Below, piece after piece: positions 1 through 59,400 of a stretch of 64,000 bases of DNA; within the stretch, counting starts at the first letter, position 1; the number at the start of each line of letters is the position of its first letter. The stretch comes from a virus: positions 1-64,000 of the IMG/VR virus record IMGVR_UViG_3300032050_000037; one strand, given 5' to 3'. The position numbers and the translations under genes are program-made. The notes under the pieces were generated by a model, which was not told where the DNA came from, ran no database searches, and worked only from the letters and a program-made list of their open reading frames with translations.

Positions 1-1
1 A

Positions 2-631
2 TTCAAAATAATCCTCTACAAGCCAAGCCTCACCAGTCTCACCAGAGATAGCATCTACATATGGGACCTTTTCTACATTTTCATGTTTAAAGAATATAAT
101 GTCTCCACCTTCGTAATCATCGTTAATGTATATATTAAAATTAAAAGAATGATTTTGATCATAGGCTCCACCTTTAATTACATCTTGGTGAATATCCATT
201 TGCCAATTTTTTGAAGAATTTGTATTTGTTTCAAAAACAACTAAATCGGCCATCAATACACCGTTTCTGTTACCATTTTCCTCTAAATCATCTAATGATT
301 TTGGAATAAATTTAGGTATTTTATTTTTTTCAAAATACTCATCATCAAAATAATTATCTCTGTAAATGTTCAAAATTTCAAAAAATACATCTAAACATTC
401 TCTCTGAAGCGCAGCTCCAAAACTGGAATCTTTTTTATATGAATGGTCTTGCATTGGATATGCTTTAGAATAATTGCCCCATGGCCTCCAGTCTTTCCAT
501 GTGTCTTTATTAAAATATGGGTCATCACCGTTTTTAGAATTTTTTATAAATTCATAGGTTGCAACCTTATCCTTTAATACATTTTTAAATAATAAAATTC
601 CACTTCCTAGATCAATTGGCTTTAAGTTCAT
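2..631 (-). CDS. 2OG-Fe(II) oxygenase (prolyl 4-hydroxylase-like), runs off the window edge
   Basis: Not in the ORF track. Reverse-strand reading from ATG 631 (MNLKPIDLGSGILLFKNV...) contains MDIHQD (HxD) and FNIYINDDYEGGDIIF, the motif shared by the other oxygenases. Confidence 0.85.
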   Translation of the reverse strand, partial: MNLKPIDLGSGILLFKNVLKDKVATYEFIKNSKNGDDPYFNKDTWKDWRPWGNYSKAYPMQDHSYKKDSSFGAALQRECLDVFFEILNIYRDNYFDDEYFEKNKIPKFIPKSLDDLEENGNRNGVLMADLVVFETNTNSSKNWQMDIHQDVIKGGAYDQNHSFNFNIYINDDYEGGDIIFFKHENVEKVPYVDAISGETGEAWLVEDYFE

Positions 632-774
632 TTTTTCCTTTTTATTATAAGTATCTTTTTAAAAAAATTTTCGATTTTATTCTGTAATTTAATTTCATGA
701 CTTTCATTTTTATAATGATCTGATTGAAAATATGGATTAAACATTTGATCACTAAAATGTCTTCTCGGCGCCAT
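628..774 (-). CDS. 48-aa small basic protein, probably leaderless
   Basis: MAPRRHFSDQMFNPYFQSDHYKNESHEIKLQNKIENFFKKILIIKRKK. The ATG is 6 nt after TGGTATAAT, and the stop overlaps the next start (ATGA). Confidence 0.7.
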   Translation of the reverse strand: MAPRRHFSDQMFNPYFQSDHYKNESHEIKLQNKIENFFKKILIIKRKK

Positions 775-790
775 AATATAATTATACCAC

Positions 791-1414
791 TTAGACTATC
801 GAAGTAATAATTCCGCTAGATACAGTTATTGTTTTACCATCGTTAGATGTAAAAGAACCACTAGCTCCATGAAAATTAACCCAAGTGGTACCATTCCATT
901 TAAGCATATCACCAGAAGTTTTACCATTTAATACTACGTTATGAAGTTCTTCTACTTCAAAACCATTTTGTACTTTTACAAATATTTCTCCATTATTTTG
1001 TTGAGCTCTAGTTACAATTCCTATAAACACTAAATGTGCAGGCGCCACTGGTTTATTTGCTAAACCGTATATTAAATTACCATCTACTCCTAACCAAACT
1101 GGATCTCCAGGATTAGCCCCATTGGTATTTAGTCCAGCCAATAAGCCTTCTGTAACTACATAACCTATTCCATTTTTATTTAAACTTTCTTCAAGTAGAC
1201 CCATAGTTTTAGACGAGGTCATTTCTATATTATTACTGGCTCTGTTTATCAACATATTAGTACCAGATTGACCAGTTGAACCAGTTACATAAACAGCTTG
1301 GCCTTTATTTATTGTTCCATTATAATCGCTTTTAACCAAATGTTTTACAGTAGATATATAGGCAGTAGATGGGTCAAATGGTGGAGTAGTAATTCTTATT
1401 CTTGGCTGAGTCAT
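791..1414 (-). CDS. Putative virion structural or fibre-associated protein
   Basis: Gly/Thr/Asn-rich beta-structure (GTINKGQAVYV...GYVVTEGLLAGLNT...GDPVWLG; C-terminal LKWNGTTWVN) typical of phage fibre or decoration domains. Confidence 0.5.
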   Translation of the reverse strand: MTQPRIRITTPPFDPSTAYISTVKHLVKSDYNGTINKGQAVYVTGSTGQSGTNMLINRASNNIEMTSSKTMGLLEESLNKNGIGYVVTEGLLAGLNTNGANPGDPVWLGVDGNLIYGLANKPVAPAHLVFIGIVTRAQQNNGEIFVKVQNGFEVEELHNVVLNGKTSGDMLKWNGTTWVNFHGASGSFTSNDGKTITVSSGIITSIV

Positions 1415-1680
1415 CCGATATCCAATTTAAATAATGCTATAGATACACCTGCATCGCCTACTGCAAATATTTTATCGCTAGGTGCAAGCTCTATAGTAAA
1501 TGATTGTCCAGGATAAAGCTTATGTCCATAATTTGAAGAAGATACAGATTCATTACCAAGATAAGCGTACCCAGTTGTCATAATATTTTGAATAGATAAA
1601 ACCATAGGTCTATCAAGAACACCACTTCTTGTTAAATCTAGCGGTGTGCTATTTAATAAAATTATAGATTGTCTTATCAC
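1411..1680 (-). CDS. Hypothetical small beta-sandwich protein, leaderless GTG start
   Basis: ORF track. GTG lies 6 nt after TATAAT; ATGA overlap with the next gene. Confidence 0.6.
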   Translation of the reverse strand: MIRQSIILLNSTPLDLTRSGVLDRPMVLSIQNIMTTGYAYLGNESVSSSNYGHKLYPGQSFTIELAPSDKIFAVGDAGVSIALFKLDIG

Positions 1681-1703
1681 TATACTATTATACCGCTAAT
1701 CAA

Positions 1704-1781
1704 CAGAAAACCCAATCGGAGGCGGATCCAATTGGGCTCTGGCATCTAATGATGCATTGTAAGGAGCTAGGCTCGACCTAC
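1704..1781 (-). ncRNA. Candidate ~78-nt structured small RNA (three hairpins, the last terminator-like)
   Basis: GC-rich island in an AT-rich spacer with its own TTGACT-N17-TAAAAT promoter. The stems contain G-U pairs only when read on the minus strand. Confidence 0.6.
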
Positions 1782-1787
1782 AAAACT

Positions 1788-1816
1788 ATTTTATAATTTA
1801 TATATTTTAAAGTCAA
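1788..1816 (-). promoter_or_regulatory. Sigma70-type promoter for the candidate sRNA
   Basis: TTGACT (1816-1811), 17-nt spacer, TAAAAT (1793-1788); predicted +1 at G1781. Confidence 0.65.
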
Positions 1817-2460
1817 TCTTTATTAATTTTTTCAAAATATTTTTTTCTATATTCAGATCTCCACAAAAACATAACTAAATTTACACGCTCCCCAGATTCG
1901 ACCTTATTTACTAAATGCGGAAAATTCATATCCCCACGGAAAAAAATAAGGGTTCCAGGATTTGGTTTTATTTTTAAATTTTGTAAAGGGAATTCTATCT
2001 CTCCACCTTGATATTTATTGTTTAAATATAATATTGCTGAATAATCTGGCTCTAAACCTAATTCTTTTATTATATTTTTATCTGTTCCATATGGAAAATA
2101 AAAAGAACCATCTGGATCGTAATTGTCATAATGTTCTGTTATTTCTGACCCTGAAATCATTTTACTATAAAATATTGTTCTTGGATCAATACTAGTGTCA
2201 TATTTTTTTGATAAAAATGATTTAATAGACACAACACAATTTGTTAATAAATCTATAGATATATTTTTATTTATATTATCAGAGTATTCTTGAATTGGAT
2301 TATTGTATCCAATTTTCCAAGCAGATTCTATACCTTGACTAGGTCCTCCAAAAATTCCTTTATTTTCAGTTTCATTTAAAGAATCTTTGAATGAATCTAC
2401 TATGAAATTACAAGAATCTTCAGATAAAAAATTTTCTATAATTTCTACATTGTTTTGCAT
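1813..2460 (-). CDS. 2OG-Fe(II) oxygenase (prolyl 4-hydroxylase-like)
   Basis: HYD ... SAILYLNNKYQGGEIEF ... H ... R: facial triad plus 2OG-binding basic residue. Confidence 0.9.
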   Translation of the reverse strand: MQNNVEIIENFLSEDSCNFIVDSFKDSLNETENKGIFGGPSQGIESAWKIGYNNPIQEYSDNINKNISIDLLTNCVVSIKSFLSKKYDTSIDPRTIFYSKMISGSEITEHYDNYDPDGSFYFPYGTDKNIIKELGLEPDYSAILYLNNKYQGGEIEFPLQNLKIKPNPGTLIFFRGDMNFPHLVNKVESGERVNLVMFLWRSEYRKKYFEKINKD

Positions 2461-2463
2461 TTA

Positions 2464-2667
2464 TCAAGAAATATTTTTAAGTAAATCTTTAGATTGTAAT
2501 CCATCTAGAATATCAGAGCATACTTGTCTGTAATATGGCTGTGCGGCTAATATTTGTTTTTCTAATTCTATTAAACTAGAACCAGATTCAACAGCAACCA
2601 TTCTATTTCTTGTATTGATTTTTTCTACCATTAATTCAATTACTGCAAATTTATCCATTCGTCTCAT
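2464..2667 (-). CDS. Hypothetical protein
   Basis: ORF track; tightly packed in the leftward operon. Confidence 0.55.
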   Translation of the reverse strand: MRRMDKFAVIELMVEKINTRNRMVAVESGSSLIELEKQILAAQPYYRQVCSDILDGLQSKDLLKNIS

Positions 2668-2881
2668 CCTTTTCAGAAGTAAATGAAGGGACTGGACCTA
2701 ATAGATATCCTTGATCATGATATGCAATTAATTTAGATACCTCGTCGCCATCATCTTTTGATGTATTTTTGGCTATTAATGTTAATACGTCATAAATTCT
2801 ATGAAGCATAATATAGCTAACCATTGGAAGATTATCTTCCAAATTCTGTTGTTGCCTATCCTCTTCAGACATTTTTATCAA
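2651..2881 (-). CDS. Hypothetical protein (start probably ATG 2872)
   Basis: ORF track; overlaps both neighbours in operon fashion. Confidence 0.6.
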   Translation of the reverse strand: MIKMSEEDRQQQNLEDNLPMVSYIMLHRIYDVLTLIAKNTSKDDGDEVSKLIAYHDQGYLLGPVPSFTSEKDETNG

Positions 2882-3077
2882 CCTTTTCTTTTATACTATT
2901 ATACAATTTTTCTCCTATAAAATTTTTATAAGAACAAGATAAACAATATAAAAATATATTATCTTCCATATCTAAATTAGATTGAAGAAGGCCTTGGTCC
3001 ATAGGACATTCTATCCTAGGTACAAGACCCTCTTCTGATAAAGCTATATATTTAGATACATATTGTATCTTTTTCAA
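2865..3077 (-). CDS. Small zinc-ribbon protein
   Basis: CPMD ... CLSC motif; AAGGAG RBS before a TTG start. Confidence 0.6.
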   Translation of the reverse strand: MKKIQYVSKYIALSEEGLVPRIECPMDQGLLQSNLDMEDNIFLYCLSCSYKNFIGEKLYNSIKEKVDKNV

Positions 3078-52188: not shown

Positions 52189-52616
52189 ATAATAAATTAC
52201 ATAAAGTAATTAGATTATCAAAAGCAAGAGACGAGTTAATTGCTTGGTGCTATACAGATAAAAAAAGAGTGCTGTATTCATATGTAGATGTTAAAAAAAA
52301 TATGGAAAACGCATATACTATAAAACAGGTGGGATTAATAATAGGAAGACATAAAGTTACTATTGAAGAATATATACTTCAAGGTAAAATTAAAGAGCCA
52401 CAGAAGGTGTATCCAATAAGTAATCCAGATAGTAAATGGTATAAATTTATGTTTAGTGAATCAGATATACTTAAATTACATGAATATATATTAGAAGCTG
52501 GATATACTAAAGACCTTCCATCAAAAACACAATTGCAGGCTCTTCTCAAACAGAACATGATATTGTATACTAAGACCGTTGACGGTTCATTTGTACCTGT
52601 ATGGAAGGCGGAGTAA
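52134..52616 (+). CDS. Putative DNA-binding protein (MerR/excisionase-like HTH)
   Basis: YTIKQVGLIIGRHKVTIEEYILQGKI...FSESDI. Confidence 0.6.
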   Translation: MVRKTRSGIRKKFLYFFLNNKLHKVIRLSKARDELIAWCYTDKKRVLYSYVDVKKNMENAYTIKQVGLIIGRHKVTIEEYILQGKIKEPQKVYPISNPDSKWYKFMFSESDILKLHEYILEAGYTKDLPSKTQLQALLKQNMILYTKTVDGSFVPVWKAE

Positions 52617-52726
52617 TGTCAAATAGAATAGTTAAATGTGATATGTGTAATAAAGAAATTGAATTGCGCTGGGGAATATTTGGACATGACACATTAAATA
52701 GACATATAAAGGCAGAGCATAAATGA
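52616..52726 (+). CDS. 36-aa C2H2 zinc-finger-like miniprotein
   Basis: Not in the track. MSNRIVKCDMCNKEIELRWGIFGHDTLNRHIKAEHK; TAATG and ATGA overlaps on both sides. Confidence 0.75.
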   Translation: MSNRIVKCDMCNKEIELRWGIFGHDTLNRHIKAEHK

Positions 52727-54465: not shown

Positions 54466-54736
54466 AAGATTTCAAATTGATGTAGAGTTTAGAGACGATT
54501 CAGATATTATTAGACTCAAAAATCAATATGAAAATATGTTAGTTCATCAAATGAGAGACAAAGGATATTCTAGAGTACTTGACATAGACACCGCATTTTC
54601 AGTAGAATTTACTGGTGAGACATGGAAGTTCTTAATGACTATTTATGGAATACATACAGGAAGGCGGAAGGCATGGGAATCAGAGGGAATAACACAAGGC
54701 AAGTTAATTCCACGCAATATGCGCCAAACCATATAA
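54443..54736 (+). CDS. Hypothetical protein overlapping the helicase end and primase start
   Basis: ORF track; fills the helicase-primase gap. Confidence 0.6.
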   Translation: MYHHSQIKRFQIDVEFRDDSDIIRLKNQYENMLVHQMRDKGYSRVLDIDTAFSVEFTGETWKFLMTIYGIHTGRRKAWESEGITQGKLIPRNMRQTI

Positions 54737-56400: not shown

Positions 56401-56443
56401 ATAGGGGCTGGCTATTGTCAGCCCCTATATTATTTAGTAGAAT
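56401..56443 (+). terminator. Terminator hairpin after SSB overlapping the dnaE promoter
   Basis: ATAGGGGCTG...CAGCCCCTAT stem; TTGTCA (56415-56420), 17-nt spacer, TAGAAT (56438-56443). Confidence 0.65.
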
Positions 56444-56449
56444 GCTTTT

Positions 56450-59400
56450 ATGACAAATTTTGCTCACCTACATGTCCATAGCTATTACAGCTTAATGGAT
56501 GGATTAAATTCACCCAAAGCTCTAGCAGAAGCTGCAAAAAATAATGGACATACAGCAATTGCTATTACAGATCATGGAACATTATCTTCTCATAGAGAAA
56601 TGCAATTAGCATGTAAAGAAATTGGAATTAAGCCAATATTAGGTGTAGAGGCATACATATCACCAACAGATAGGTTTGATAGATCATCTAAAACAGATAA
56701 AAGTATTCAGGCATATAACCATATTATCCTTTTAGCCAAAAATATGAAAGGTTTAGAAAATATAAATATTTTACAAGAAATTGCTTGGAACGAAGGATTT
56801 TATCATAAACCACGTATTGATAGAGAGGTATTAAAAGAATATGCGGAAGGTATTATTGTACTTAGTGGATGTCTTAATGGTCTTATTAGTAAATGCATTG
56901 AACGGCAGGAGTTCTCAGAAGCAAAACTTATACTCAAAGATTTTAAACAAACTTTTGGCGAAGATTTTTACATTGAGGTTCAATCTCACAACCCACAAGA
57001 AATAAATAATAAATTATTAGAGTTTGCAAAAGAACTAGACATCAAACCAGTTGCAACATCAGATTCTCATTTTGCTAAAAAAGAAGACAAGGTTTTAGTT
57101 GAAGCTATGTTAATTCTATCTACATCTCCAAAATCAGATAAAGAATCAGATTTTGAGATGTCTAGAAATATAAGTAATATGATGGATAGGTTTAATTATT
57201 TATACCCAAATAGGAAAATATCATTTCAAGAACAAAATCTCTGGATTCAGTCTAGAAAAGAAATAGAAGAAGATTTTAATAAAGTTGGGATAAATCGATC
57301 AGATATTTTTGATAATACAATAGAAATTGCTAATAAAATTGAAGAATACGATTTTAATAGTGGTCTAGACCTCCTCCCAGTACCCAAGACGGATGCAGAT
57401 CAGAAACTGGCTGAGATGGCCTTTAAAGGCTTAGAAAGCCTACATCTGACCTCATCATGGCTAGGAAATGACATATATGAGCAAAGATTGATAGAAGAAT
57501 TAGAAATTATTAAAGATAAAAGTTTTGCCTCATATTTCCTAGTAGTAGCAGACATGATTAATTGGGCTAAAGAAAATAATATTATGGTTGGTCCTGGTCG
57601 TGGCTCTGCTGCTGGTTCATTAGTATGTTATGCCCTAGGAATTACAGATGTAGACCCAATTGAATATGACTTATTGTTTTTCCGATTTATTAATCCTGAG
57701 CGTAATGACTTCCCAGATATAGATACAGACTTTGAGGATCGTCGTCGCAAAGAGGTTAAAGATTATCTTAAAAAGAAATTTAAGCATGTAGCATCTATTT
57801 CAACATACACATATTTTAAAGATAAAGGCGTTATTAGAGATGCTGCTCGTGTATTTATGGTTCCACTACAAGACGTAAATCGTGCAATGAAGTCAATTGA
57901 TACATTTGAAGATTTTATGGAATCTCCTAACACAAAAGAATTTAGATCTAAATATCCAGAAGTGGTATGGCTTGCTGAAAGATTACGTGGAAAAATTAGA
58001 TCAGTTGGAGTACATGCTGCAGGAGTTGTTGTTGCTAAAGATGATTTAAGAAAATATGCACCAATTGAATCTAGAGAAGACGCACAAGATAAAGTTTCTG
58101 GCAGAATACCAGTAGTAGCTTATGATATGGACACCGTAGCAGATATTGGTTTAATTAAATTAGATGCATTAGGCTTAAAAACATTATCAGTTATCTCAGA
58201 TACATTAAAATCAATTAAAGAAAGATACAATAAAGATATTATTCTTTCTGATTTATCTTTAGATGATGCAGAGGTATATAGAGTATTAAGTGATGGATAT
58301 ACAAAAGGTGTATTCCAAGCTGAAGCTACTCCGTATACAAATTTATTAATTAAAATGGGTGTAGATAAATTTGAAGATCTTGCTGCTTCAAATGCTTTAG
58401 TGCGTCCAGGTGCCATGAACACGGTAGGTGCTTCATATATTAATAGAAAACATGGATTTGAAGATGTAGAATACGTTCATGAAATTATGAAACCTTTTAC
58501 TGAAAATACATATGGTGTTATCATATATCAAGAGCAAGTTATGCAAGCTTGCGTTTATTTAGGAGGGATGACTTGGTCTGAGGCTGATAAAGTTCGTAAG
58601 ATCATAGGAAAGAAAAAGGATGCAAAAGAATTCGACCAGTTCAAGGATAAATTTATTGATGGGGCTTCAAAACACATTTCTAAGAAAAAAGCCGAATCCC
58701 TATGGCATGATTTCGAAGCTCACGCAGGTTATTCTTTTAACCGTAGTCATGCCGTTGCTTATTCTATGCTTTCTTATTATACTGCTTGGCTTAAAAAGTA
58801 TTACCCTCTTGAGTTCATGTTTTCAGTACTTAAAAATGAAAATGATAAAGATGCTAGGACAGAATATTTAATTGAAGCAAAAAGATTAAACTTAAAAATA
58901 TTATTGCCACACATCAATGAATCAGAAGTTTATTTTTCTTTAAAAAATGATGCAATTCAATTTGGATTAGCTGAAATTAAATTTATATCTGATAGTATTG
59001 CAAATAAAATTATAGAAAAGAGACCGTATGAATCGTATGCAGATTTCATTAAAAAAGCCTCTGCCAAAGGCAGCGGTATTAACAGCAGGGCTATTACTGC
59101 TCTTAATAACATTGGTGGGGCTGCTTTTACGGATAATCAGCGTAATAACAAAGAAAAAGAAAATTATTACGAATATTTAGGAATACCGACTTTTAATACA
59201 GATTTGCCTCCACGAATTAAAGCACAGGCAAGGCCAATAGAAGATTTTGATGATCTTGGATCCTTTCCAATGTTTGGGATGGTAAAAAGTATTAAACGTG
59301 GTACTGGTTGGGCCAGAGTAGAATTAGTAGATGAAACAGGATCAATTGGTTTATTCCATCATGAACAAACTCAAATTGAAACTGGACAGATGTACTTTAT

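Follow-up and report, generated by a model that had tools for sequence, protein, structure and literature searches.

The window analysed in this work comprises the first 64 kb (64,000 nucleotides) of a 113,072-bp IMG/VR virus record (IMGVR_UViG_3300032050_000037, here G000) that is rated 100% complete and has a G+C content of 33%. The phage encodes a WhiB protein (PF02467, 45 bits), which points to an actinobacterium as its probable host. Near the start of the window, a gene for a 2OG-Fe(II) oxygenase (1813-2460, minus strand; PF13640, E = 6.7e-10) is followed on the same strand by an 89-aa ORF (1411-1680) that has 26 homologous loci and belongs to no Pfam or PHROG family. Between these two genes lies a short element that the first-pass annotation had read as a stand-alone structured small RNA with its own promoter and terminator, a reading that comparative data now support for a predicted transcript. 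In a search for relatives among cultured phages, blastn of positions 1400-2500 against 50,697 phage records returned no match, and neither the gene neighbours of the element nor the candidate target families A and B, described below, gave a functional lead in Pfam, PHROG or Atlas.

Promoter, folding and extent of the predicted RNA

The promoter proposed for the element was found where it had been reported, on the minus strand, with a -35 hexamer TTGACT (1811-1816) that overlaps the TGA stop codon of ORF 1813-2460 and, after a 17-nt spacer, a -10 hexamer TAAAAT (1788-1793). G1781 lies 7 nt past the -10 and would be the +1 position by promoter spacing. A promoter match of this kind is by itself at chance level in AT-rich DNA (40 sites against 34 expected in 6 kb) and is not significant, so the case for the promoter rests on its conservation in relatives, given in the next section. 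The predicted transcript spans 1697-1781 (minus strand), with G1781 as its 5' end and a 3' end probably between 1697 and 1704.

RNAfold returned the same three adjacent hairpins that had been drawn initially, from an RNA sequence identical to the one written then. Hairpin 1 (1759-1781) consists of an outer stem GUAGG/CUUAC, a 2-nt bulge UC and an inner stem GAGC/GCUC, and hairpin 2 (1742-1755) of GCAUC-AUUA-GAUGC. Hairpin 3 (1704-1741), which was also recovered by a terminator scan, has a core stem CCCAAUUGGA/UCCGAUUGGG between 1736 and 1711, an apical loop AUCCGCCU at 1720-1727 and an outer extension CAGA/UCUG around the first U-run. The minimum free energy of the RNA is -32.9 kcal/mol, compared with -17.1 +/- 2.6 for 200 dinucleotide shuffles, none of which folded as well (z = -6.0). 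The scan identified hairpin 3 as an intrinsic (Rho-independent) terminator with 14 pairs, five of them G-C, followed by UUUU. The hairpin and its U-run are kept in all members of the family, and most have a second U-run after the extended stem; in this genome the distal U-run is weak (UUGAUU).

Some details of the initial description needed revision. It had given a length of about 78 nt; the outer stem of hairpin 3 covaries beyond the first U-run, which implies that the RNA extends past it and more likely ends after the second U-rich stretch, near 1697-1702, at about 80-85 nt. The Met-His-His minigene noted at the time is present in this genome but is not conserved, since hairpin 2 covaries freely, and the family holds no conserved ORF. 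Of the anti-Shine-Dalgarno-like words to which attention had been drawn, CUCCUU in hairpin 1 is not conserved, whereas CCGCCU(C) in the loop of hairpin 3 is.

Covariation, strand and distribution of the family

The downstream 89-aa ORF retrieved 26 syntenic loci, 25 of which carry the same element upstream. A degenerate pattern of the hairpin 3 core matched at least 120 contigs in IMG/VR, with about 110 distinct variants among the matches listed, and each variant folds singly into the same architecture. A covariance model (R1) matched 100 distinct copies at 49-101 bits; on this genome it matched positions 1693-1783 at 57.5 bits (E = 1.8e-11), the sole copy in 113 kb. In the R1 alignment, which was fitted to the model and so favours the structure, 93.2% of the cells are paired and 26 of the 33 pairs show compensatory (two-sided) changes, and single-sequence folds and MAFFT/RNAalifold independently agree with the result. 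The covariation score was 0.442, compared with 0.210 for shuffles (0 of 500 reached the observed value) and with at most 0.119 when partners were slid.

The three hairpins contribute differently to this signal. Helix 1 (hairpin 1) has two-sided changes in 11 of its 12 pairs with 92% of cells paired, and its GGU...CUCC core is nearly invariant across relatives. Hairpin 2 is variable and dispensable: all five modelled pairs show two-sided changes, and it is absent from a few two-hairpin variants, among them L030, L060, L091 and L140. Helix 4 (hairpin 3) has compensatory changes in 10 of 16 pairs, as at pair 81:99 (A-U 74, U-A 22) and the outer pair 69:108 (A-U 33, C-G 32). Within this covarying stem, the loop AUCCGCCU is the only exposed stretch that is invariant. 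The sole exception is the divergent lineage G009/G012, whose loop reads ACCCGCCU and in which the stem is doubly compensated and hairpin 1 differs. Conservation of the third hairpin only, as expected of a simple terminator of the oxygenase gene, was not what we observed, since hairpins 1 and 2 are also kept by compensatory change.

The orientation assigned earlier from G-U pairs holds in the family. Pair 84:96 is G-U in 81 of the 100 copies, and R1 scores 57.5 bits on the sense strand against 12.9 bits on the antisense. The promoter is likewise a family character: of 112 distinct members, about 100 have TTGAC[TA]-N17-TAnnnT or TGTGATAAT, with an unchanging spacing to hairpin 1. Among 100 promoter-bearing distinct relatives, 98 have a -35 of the form TTGAC[T/A/C], nearly all with the 17-nt spacer, and the -10 is TACAAT (51), TATACT (17), TATAAT (12) or an extended -10 of the TGTGATAAT type, with the distance to hairpin 1 unchanged. 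Seven nucleotides past the -10, at the first paired base of hairpin 1, 75 of 100 relatives have G. On this comparative evidence the element is a gene family and not a chance fold, and a discrete structured sRNA gene very probably exists at the locus.

To examine distribution independently of the RNA, eight contigs were chosen by portal similarity alone; seven carried exactly one copy and the exception was only 42% complete. Over all related records searched, one copy was present in 15 of 17; at least 596 IMG/VR contigs carry a portal homologue. Among prokaryote genomes (185,579 species genomes), the hairpin 3 core was found on 2 of 32 million contigs, both small and phage-like and both from MAGs. 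These two contigs, a 24.9-kb contig of a Saccharibacteria MAG (L149) and a 5-kb contig of a Bacteroidia MAG (L150), carry the full promoter-sRNA unit and are probably phage contigs mis-binned into MAGs. As far as genome comparison can tell, the sRNA is restricted to phages and belongs, in one copy per genome, to the core genes of a large clade of uncultured actinobacterial phages from freshwater. The locus (searched as 1000-3000) was found in no RNA run and not in lake metatranscriptomes, which says nothing about expression either way; two wastewater runs marked 'RNA?' contained only contigs with 85-95% identity, which probably derive from the DNA of relatives.

The word AGGCGGA at ribosome-binding sites

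The loop core of hairpin 3, UCCGCCU, is the exact complement of AGGCGGA. Targets were sought in the six, later fourteen, most complete related genomes, with the ribosome-binding site (RBS) position defined as 0-8 nt before start codons. In the fourteen genomes AGGCGGA occurs 295 times, 37 of them at RBS position, compared with 5 of 253 for AGGTGGA, 3 of 24 for AGGGGGA and 53 of 171 for AGGAGGA; the mean for 105 permutations of its letters is 3.1 at RBS position. Of 11,756 7-mers present in the 16 nt that precede candidate starts, it holds rank 39, below canonical AAGGAG variants, A-runs and the -10 boxes of leaderless genes. Against the 16S anti-Shine-Dalgarno sequence (CCUCC), AGGCGG has a central C-U mismatch, whereas with the sRNA loop it forms a perfect 7-bp duplex with five G-C pairs. 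Having C where the 16S sequence needs A, AGGCGGA would therefore be a weaker site for the ribosome and a perfect match for the sRNA.

The word is conserved among orthologues. The gene of family A (G000 100,635-100,901, minus strand) has AGGCGGAU-AUG behind a TTGACC-17-TATAAT promoter, and AGGCGGA stands 1-5 nt before ATG in every orthologue examined, in 10 genomes and in six more distinct UTRs. The proteins are as little as 42% identical, and the remainder of the short leader has diverged around the word. The promoter of this gene (G000 100,905-100,960, minus strand; orthologues L207-L219) has a conserved C-rich spacer, TTGACC-TTCCCCAACCTTTTTG-ATATAAT, and is preceded by GGGAGGG-type repeats, which suggests an additional protein operator. 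AGGCGGA was also found at the RBS of family C, a 67-70-aa protein, in eight genomes, of Pol III alpha in five, of family B (the MGDRANFGF protein) in four, of a DnaG-like primase in three and of an SSB-like protein in one.

Within the window, the candidate target is the gene for the DnaG-like primase, a protein with Zn-ribbon and Toprim domains, where AGGCGGA (54662-54668) is followed after 4 nt by ATG 54673 (54662-54675, plus strand) and would be the site of pairing. The same RBS word precedes the orthologues in G006 and G010. The start of the longest ORF at 54622 is probably wrong, ATG 54673 being indicated by the conserved RBS and by orthologue N-termini; this is an example of the gene starts corrected by the analysis. 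A second site, at a gene junction (52606-52618, plus strand), has AGGCGGA at 52606-52612, then GUA and AUG 52616; it is a weaker candidate, whose UGGAAGGCGGA junction recurs before the family C gene in 8 of the 14 genomes.

The perfect word occurs at only two or three genes of this genome. Family B has AGGCGGU here, and in Pol III alpha the orthologous RBS is replaced by GGGAGGA in G001 and by a leaderless start in this genome. Such replacements indicate that the genes can do without AGGCGGA and that the word also functions as a normal Shine-Dalgarno sequence. The leaderless Pol III alpha gene of this genome (ATG 56450; window 56420-56452) reads TTGTCA-17-TAGAAT-6 nt-ATG, in place of the AGGCGGA or GGGCGGA RBS of relatives. 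Leaderless designs are common in this phage group, with GTATAAT within 16 nt of candidate starts 76 times in the fourteen genomes.

Loop and target word are both invariant, leaving no variation in which loop and target could covary, and no covariation was seen between the flanks of the sRNA loop and those of the RBS. The seed is only 7 nt long, and all 7 bp can form only if the closing pair of the 6-nt loop opens. Genome-wide duplex and cofold rankings were noisy: family A was 8th among 784 in G000 and 2nd among 849 in G002, no candidate target was among the top 8 of G003 or G004, and no single conserved top target emerged. Two other leads were discarded. The 8-mer AGGCGGAU also occurs within coding regions, at the K-G-G-S and K-G-G-Y codons of two conserved genes, but these codons vary synonymously among homologues, here too (GGC/GGT, AAA/AAG), so the matches are due to chance or codon use; likewise, a strand bias of AGGCGGAT matches follows coding-strand bias and is shared by the reversed-word control. 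A separate candidate sRNA of the same genome, against the early RBS AACGAAAGG, has no sequence likeness to the three-hairpin element.

Possible modes of action and known RNAs

With its own promoter and terminator, no conserved ORF and a loop complementary to an enriched, orthologously conserved RBS word, the element has the sequence features of a trans-acting sRNA. We propose that a strong host-type (sigma-A/sigma-70-like) promoter fires early in infection, that transcription begins at G1781, right at the base of hairpin 1, and ends at hairpin 3, and that the resulting non-coding RNA of about 80-85 nt, independently transcribed, acts in trans by base pairing. The C-rich invariant loop 5'-AUCCGCCU-3', presented as the seed on an easily opened top (a conserved G-U and an A-U closing pair), would pair with AGGCGGA, taken as a non-canonical Shine-Dalgarno element 0-8 nt before the start codons of a small gene set. 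The putative targets are a conserved 89-137-aa protein, the DnaG-like primase, Pol III alpha, the SSB-like protein and several small proteins. By masking these sites, the sRNA would repress or time translation of the replication module and spare canonical AAGGAG sites, and host mRNAs with AGGCGGA could be further targets. Actinobacteria have neither Hfq nor ProQ, so pairing through a G-C-rich loop is expected to proceed without a chaperone, as for the 6C sRNA. To the mechanism as a whole, a trans-acting and chaperone-independent sRNA that masks AGGCGGA as a private Shine-Dalgarno variant, we give an even chance. A wider reading, possible though somewhat doubtful, is that this clade of lake actinophages has a private Shine-Dalgarno code, read poorly by the ribosome, on its replication module and one early sRNA whose invariant loop is the anti-code, serving as master timer or off-switch for the translation of replication genes.

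A real base-pairing sRNA might instead have its relevant targets among host mRNAs, in an early takeover of the cell, with the phage AGGCGGA match incidental or the expression of a general anti-Shine-Dalgarno-like seed. The strong host-type promoter implies very early expression, and a highly conserved target in the host would fit a loop that does not vary among over 100 diverged phages. Thermodynamic ranking singles out no phage target, and the phage RBS word is sometimes replaced. Such a reading is nevertheless unlikely, as the sevenfold excess of AGGCGGA over AGGTGGA at phage starts and its conservation in five gene families would need another cause.

The same invariance could also mark a site for protein. 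The RNA would then serve as a scaffold, sponge or decoy and would involve no base pairing; its partner could be a protein of the host or of the phage, such as a ribonuclease, a ribosomal protein or a nuclease of a defence system. An invariant loop on a covarying stem, the conserved G-U wobble 84:96 and the conserved 2-nt bulge of hairpin 1 are typical of protein sites, sRNA and RBS do not co-vary, and the RNA adjoins tRNA clusters in many genomes. However, no candidate partner gene travels with the sRNA, the element is not similar to any Rfam protein-binding RNA, and the exact complementarity of the loop to an enriched RBS word would be left as coincidence. We therefore regard protein binding as the sole function as rather improbable.

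The context downstream of the sRNA bears on two further explanations. In this genome the next gene has its own promoter and a leaderless start (1678-1692, minus strand: TATAAT at 1692-1687, 6 nt, GTG at 1680-1678), as had been noted at the outset, and the design of a -10 box, 6-7 nt and ATG or GTG recurs in all 26 syntenic loci, even in L012, where the sRNA is absent. TTGGGT, in the 3' arm of the sRNA terminator (1715-1710, minus strand), lies exactly 17 nt 5' of this TATAAT, and the terminator may double as the -35 region of the leaderless gene. In other members the sRNA is followed by tRNA genes (56 of 123 distinct contexts), all on the opposite strand, and in 17 of these the 3' end of the tRNA is 36-42 nt from hairpin 3, which probably also terminates the convergent tRNA operon as a two-way terminator. 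In G000, tRNA-Asn and tRNA-Glu genes lie at the far end of the record (111800-112063, outside the window; the other side is window 1-1700). Joining the two ends gives the sRNA-to-convergent-tRNA synteny of relatives, which indicates that the record is probably circularly permuted or was cut at an arbitrary point. In seven members (L024, L038, L040, L052, L103, L139 and L147) a repeated, partly palindromic motif, GTGCA(A)TTGCGTCG(C/A)A(A)TTGCAAAAAA, occurs 20-60 nt downstream of the sRNA and looks like an operator or other protein-binding site. The second pattern match in L118 is an H3-only copy with the same invariant loop and without hairpin 1, hairpin 2 or the promoter; it stands directly after a protein-coding gene as a plain terminator before a TGTATAAT promoter.

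This arrangement could suggest that the element is punctuation, a strong bidirectional terminator or insulator between a converging tRNA operon and the early arm, with the transcript as a by-product. The convergent tRNA genes, the H3-only copy of L118 and the recurrence of TTGGGT 17 nt before the TATAAT of the next gene in syntenic loci would all fit, as would the outer stem of hairpin 3, which pairs an A-rich 5' flank with the U-run in the manner of two-way terminators. Yet termination needs no invariant loop, no compensated hairpins 1 and 2 and no consensus promoter at a fixed distance, the conserved G-U pairs would be C-A mismatches on the other strand, and hairpin 1 is missing from only 1 of about 146 pattern matches among the matches listed; punctuation as the primary function is accordingly quite improbable.

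The weakest alternative, a cis-acting leader or attenuator whose short constitutive transcript would end at hairpin 3 unless an antiterminator intervenes, on the model of lambda PR'-tR', where a short transcript is terminated unless an antiterminator allows read-through, draws on the succession of promoter, structured leader, terminator and co-directional genes here and in 25 syntenic loci and on the weak distal U-run of this genome, but we rejected it as very improbable because at least 17 members have opposite-strand tRNA genes next, 36-42 nt away, because co-directional neighbours carry a conserved -10 of their own 6 nt before the start even in L012, and because the downstream genes differ among members. 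The variable downstream context likewise excludes a 5' UTR or attenuator as the general function, in agreement with the first-pass annotation, which had held that the element is not a 5' UTR.

A trans-acting sRNA that masks AGGCGGA thus remains our preferred interpretation. To our knowledge, very few phage regulatory RNAs have been characterised, and none from uncultured phages of freshwater Actinobacteria. The present element is, on comparative grounds, a new and widespread family of phage sRNAs that comes with a specific and testable hypothesis on its targets, and as a core single-copy sRNA of a group with at least 596 portal-bearing contigs it probably acts in very many lake infections. Its covariance model provides a new marker and annotation for these genomes. 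If the proposed pairing is true, the phage makes a subset of its genes addressable by one RNA through a Shine-Dalgarno variant that the ribosome binds weakly, a design principle that would be of interest for the timing of phage development, for the mechanisms of sRNAs in bacteria that have no Hfq and for synthetic, orthogonal control of translation.

The element had not been recognised at first as a tRNA, ribozyme or riboswitch. In database searches, Rfam 15 gave no match at gathering score in the 64-kb window and ARAGORN found no tRNA or tmRNA. The best sub-threshold match in a permissive cmscan of 1500-2000 was ctRNA_pGA1 (20.9 bits against a threshold of 45), confined to the terminator, and permissive scans of five relatives against all of Rfam recovered no family and no 6C. 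Several partial resemblances were considered and set aside. A likeness of one hairpin 1 variant to the sarcin-ricin loop region was judged coincidental, since the outer stem covaries; the ANTAR dual-hexaloop motif was rejected because only hairpin 3 has a hexaloop, and without A at position 1. The 8-mer AUCCGCCU recurs in the phage tRNA-Thr(UGU) genes of L019 (near 3743) and L061 (near 3973), where it runs from the end of the D-arm into the 5' strand of the anticodon stem; it is there in the same sense, not complementary, and was judged coincidental.

Among phage systems, the PeSL (promoter-early stem-loop) elements of T4-type phages, which are multi-copy cassettes of recombination and punctuation, share with the present unit a compact combination of a sigma-70-type early promoter and a stem-loop; unlike them, the sRNA is single-copy (in G000 and in 15 related records) and has three covarying hairpins and an invariant loop. 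The c4 antisense RNA of P1 and P7, of about 77 nt, pairs through its loops with sites that cover an RBS on the phage's own mRNA and blocks expression; it is processed from the same operon transcript that it regulates and has one adjacent target. Our sRNA resembles c4 as a phage RNA proposed to mask phage RBSs, and differs in having its own promoter and terminator, candidate targets dispersed over the genome and no Rfam C4 match. A parallel in the proposed regulatory logic is RegA of T4, an early protein that lowers the translation of several early and replication genes by covering their RBSs. In both cases one early product would act on the RBSs of a gene set, but the proposed effector here is an RNA that reads a Shine-Dalgarno variant, and if the reading of a private code is true, it would be an RNA counterpart of RegA that works without any chaperone.

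The 6C sRNA of Actinobacteria (B11; RF01066) binds G-rich mRNA sites, including that of dnaB, through C-rich loops and without chaperones (PMC6486639). The present RNA is like 6C a small, highly structured, stand-alone RNA of a lineage free of Hfq and ProQ, with a C-rich loop and, as proposed here, replication genes as targets. Unlike 6C, it is phage-encoded and not chromosomal, and the two are not homologous; the 6C model (gathering threshold 47 bits) had no match at E <= 10 in the whole 113-kb genome. In 6C, two hairpins have a run of C in the loop, of six or more residues. The one invariant loop of the phage RNA, UCCGCC of hairpin 3, is C-rich but interrupted by G, and lies in the terminator; the loop of hairpin 1 is AUCCCAC in most relatives and CCUA in this window. 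By analogy, the proposed mode of action most resembles that of the 6C sRNA, outside whose family the phage RNA stands.
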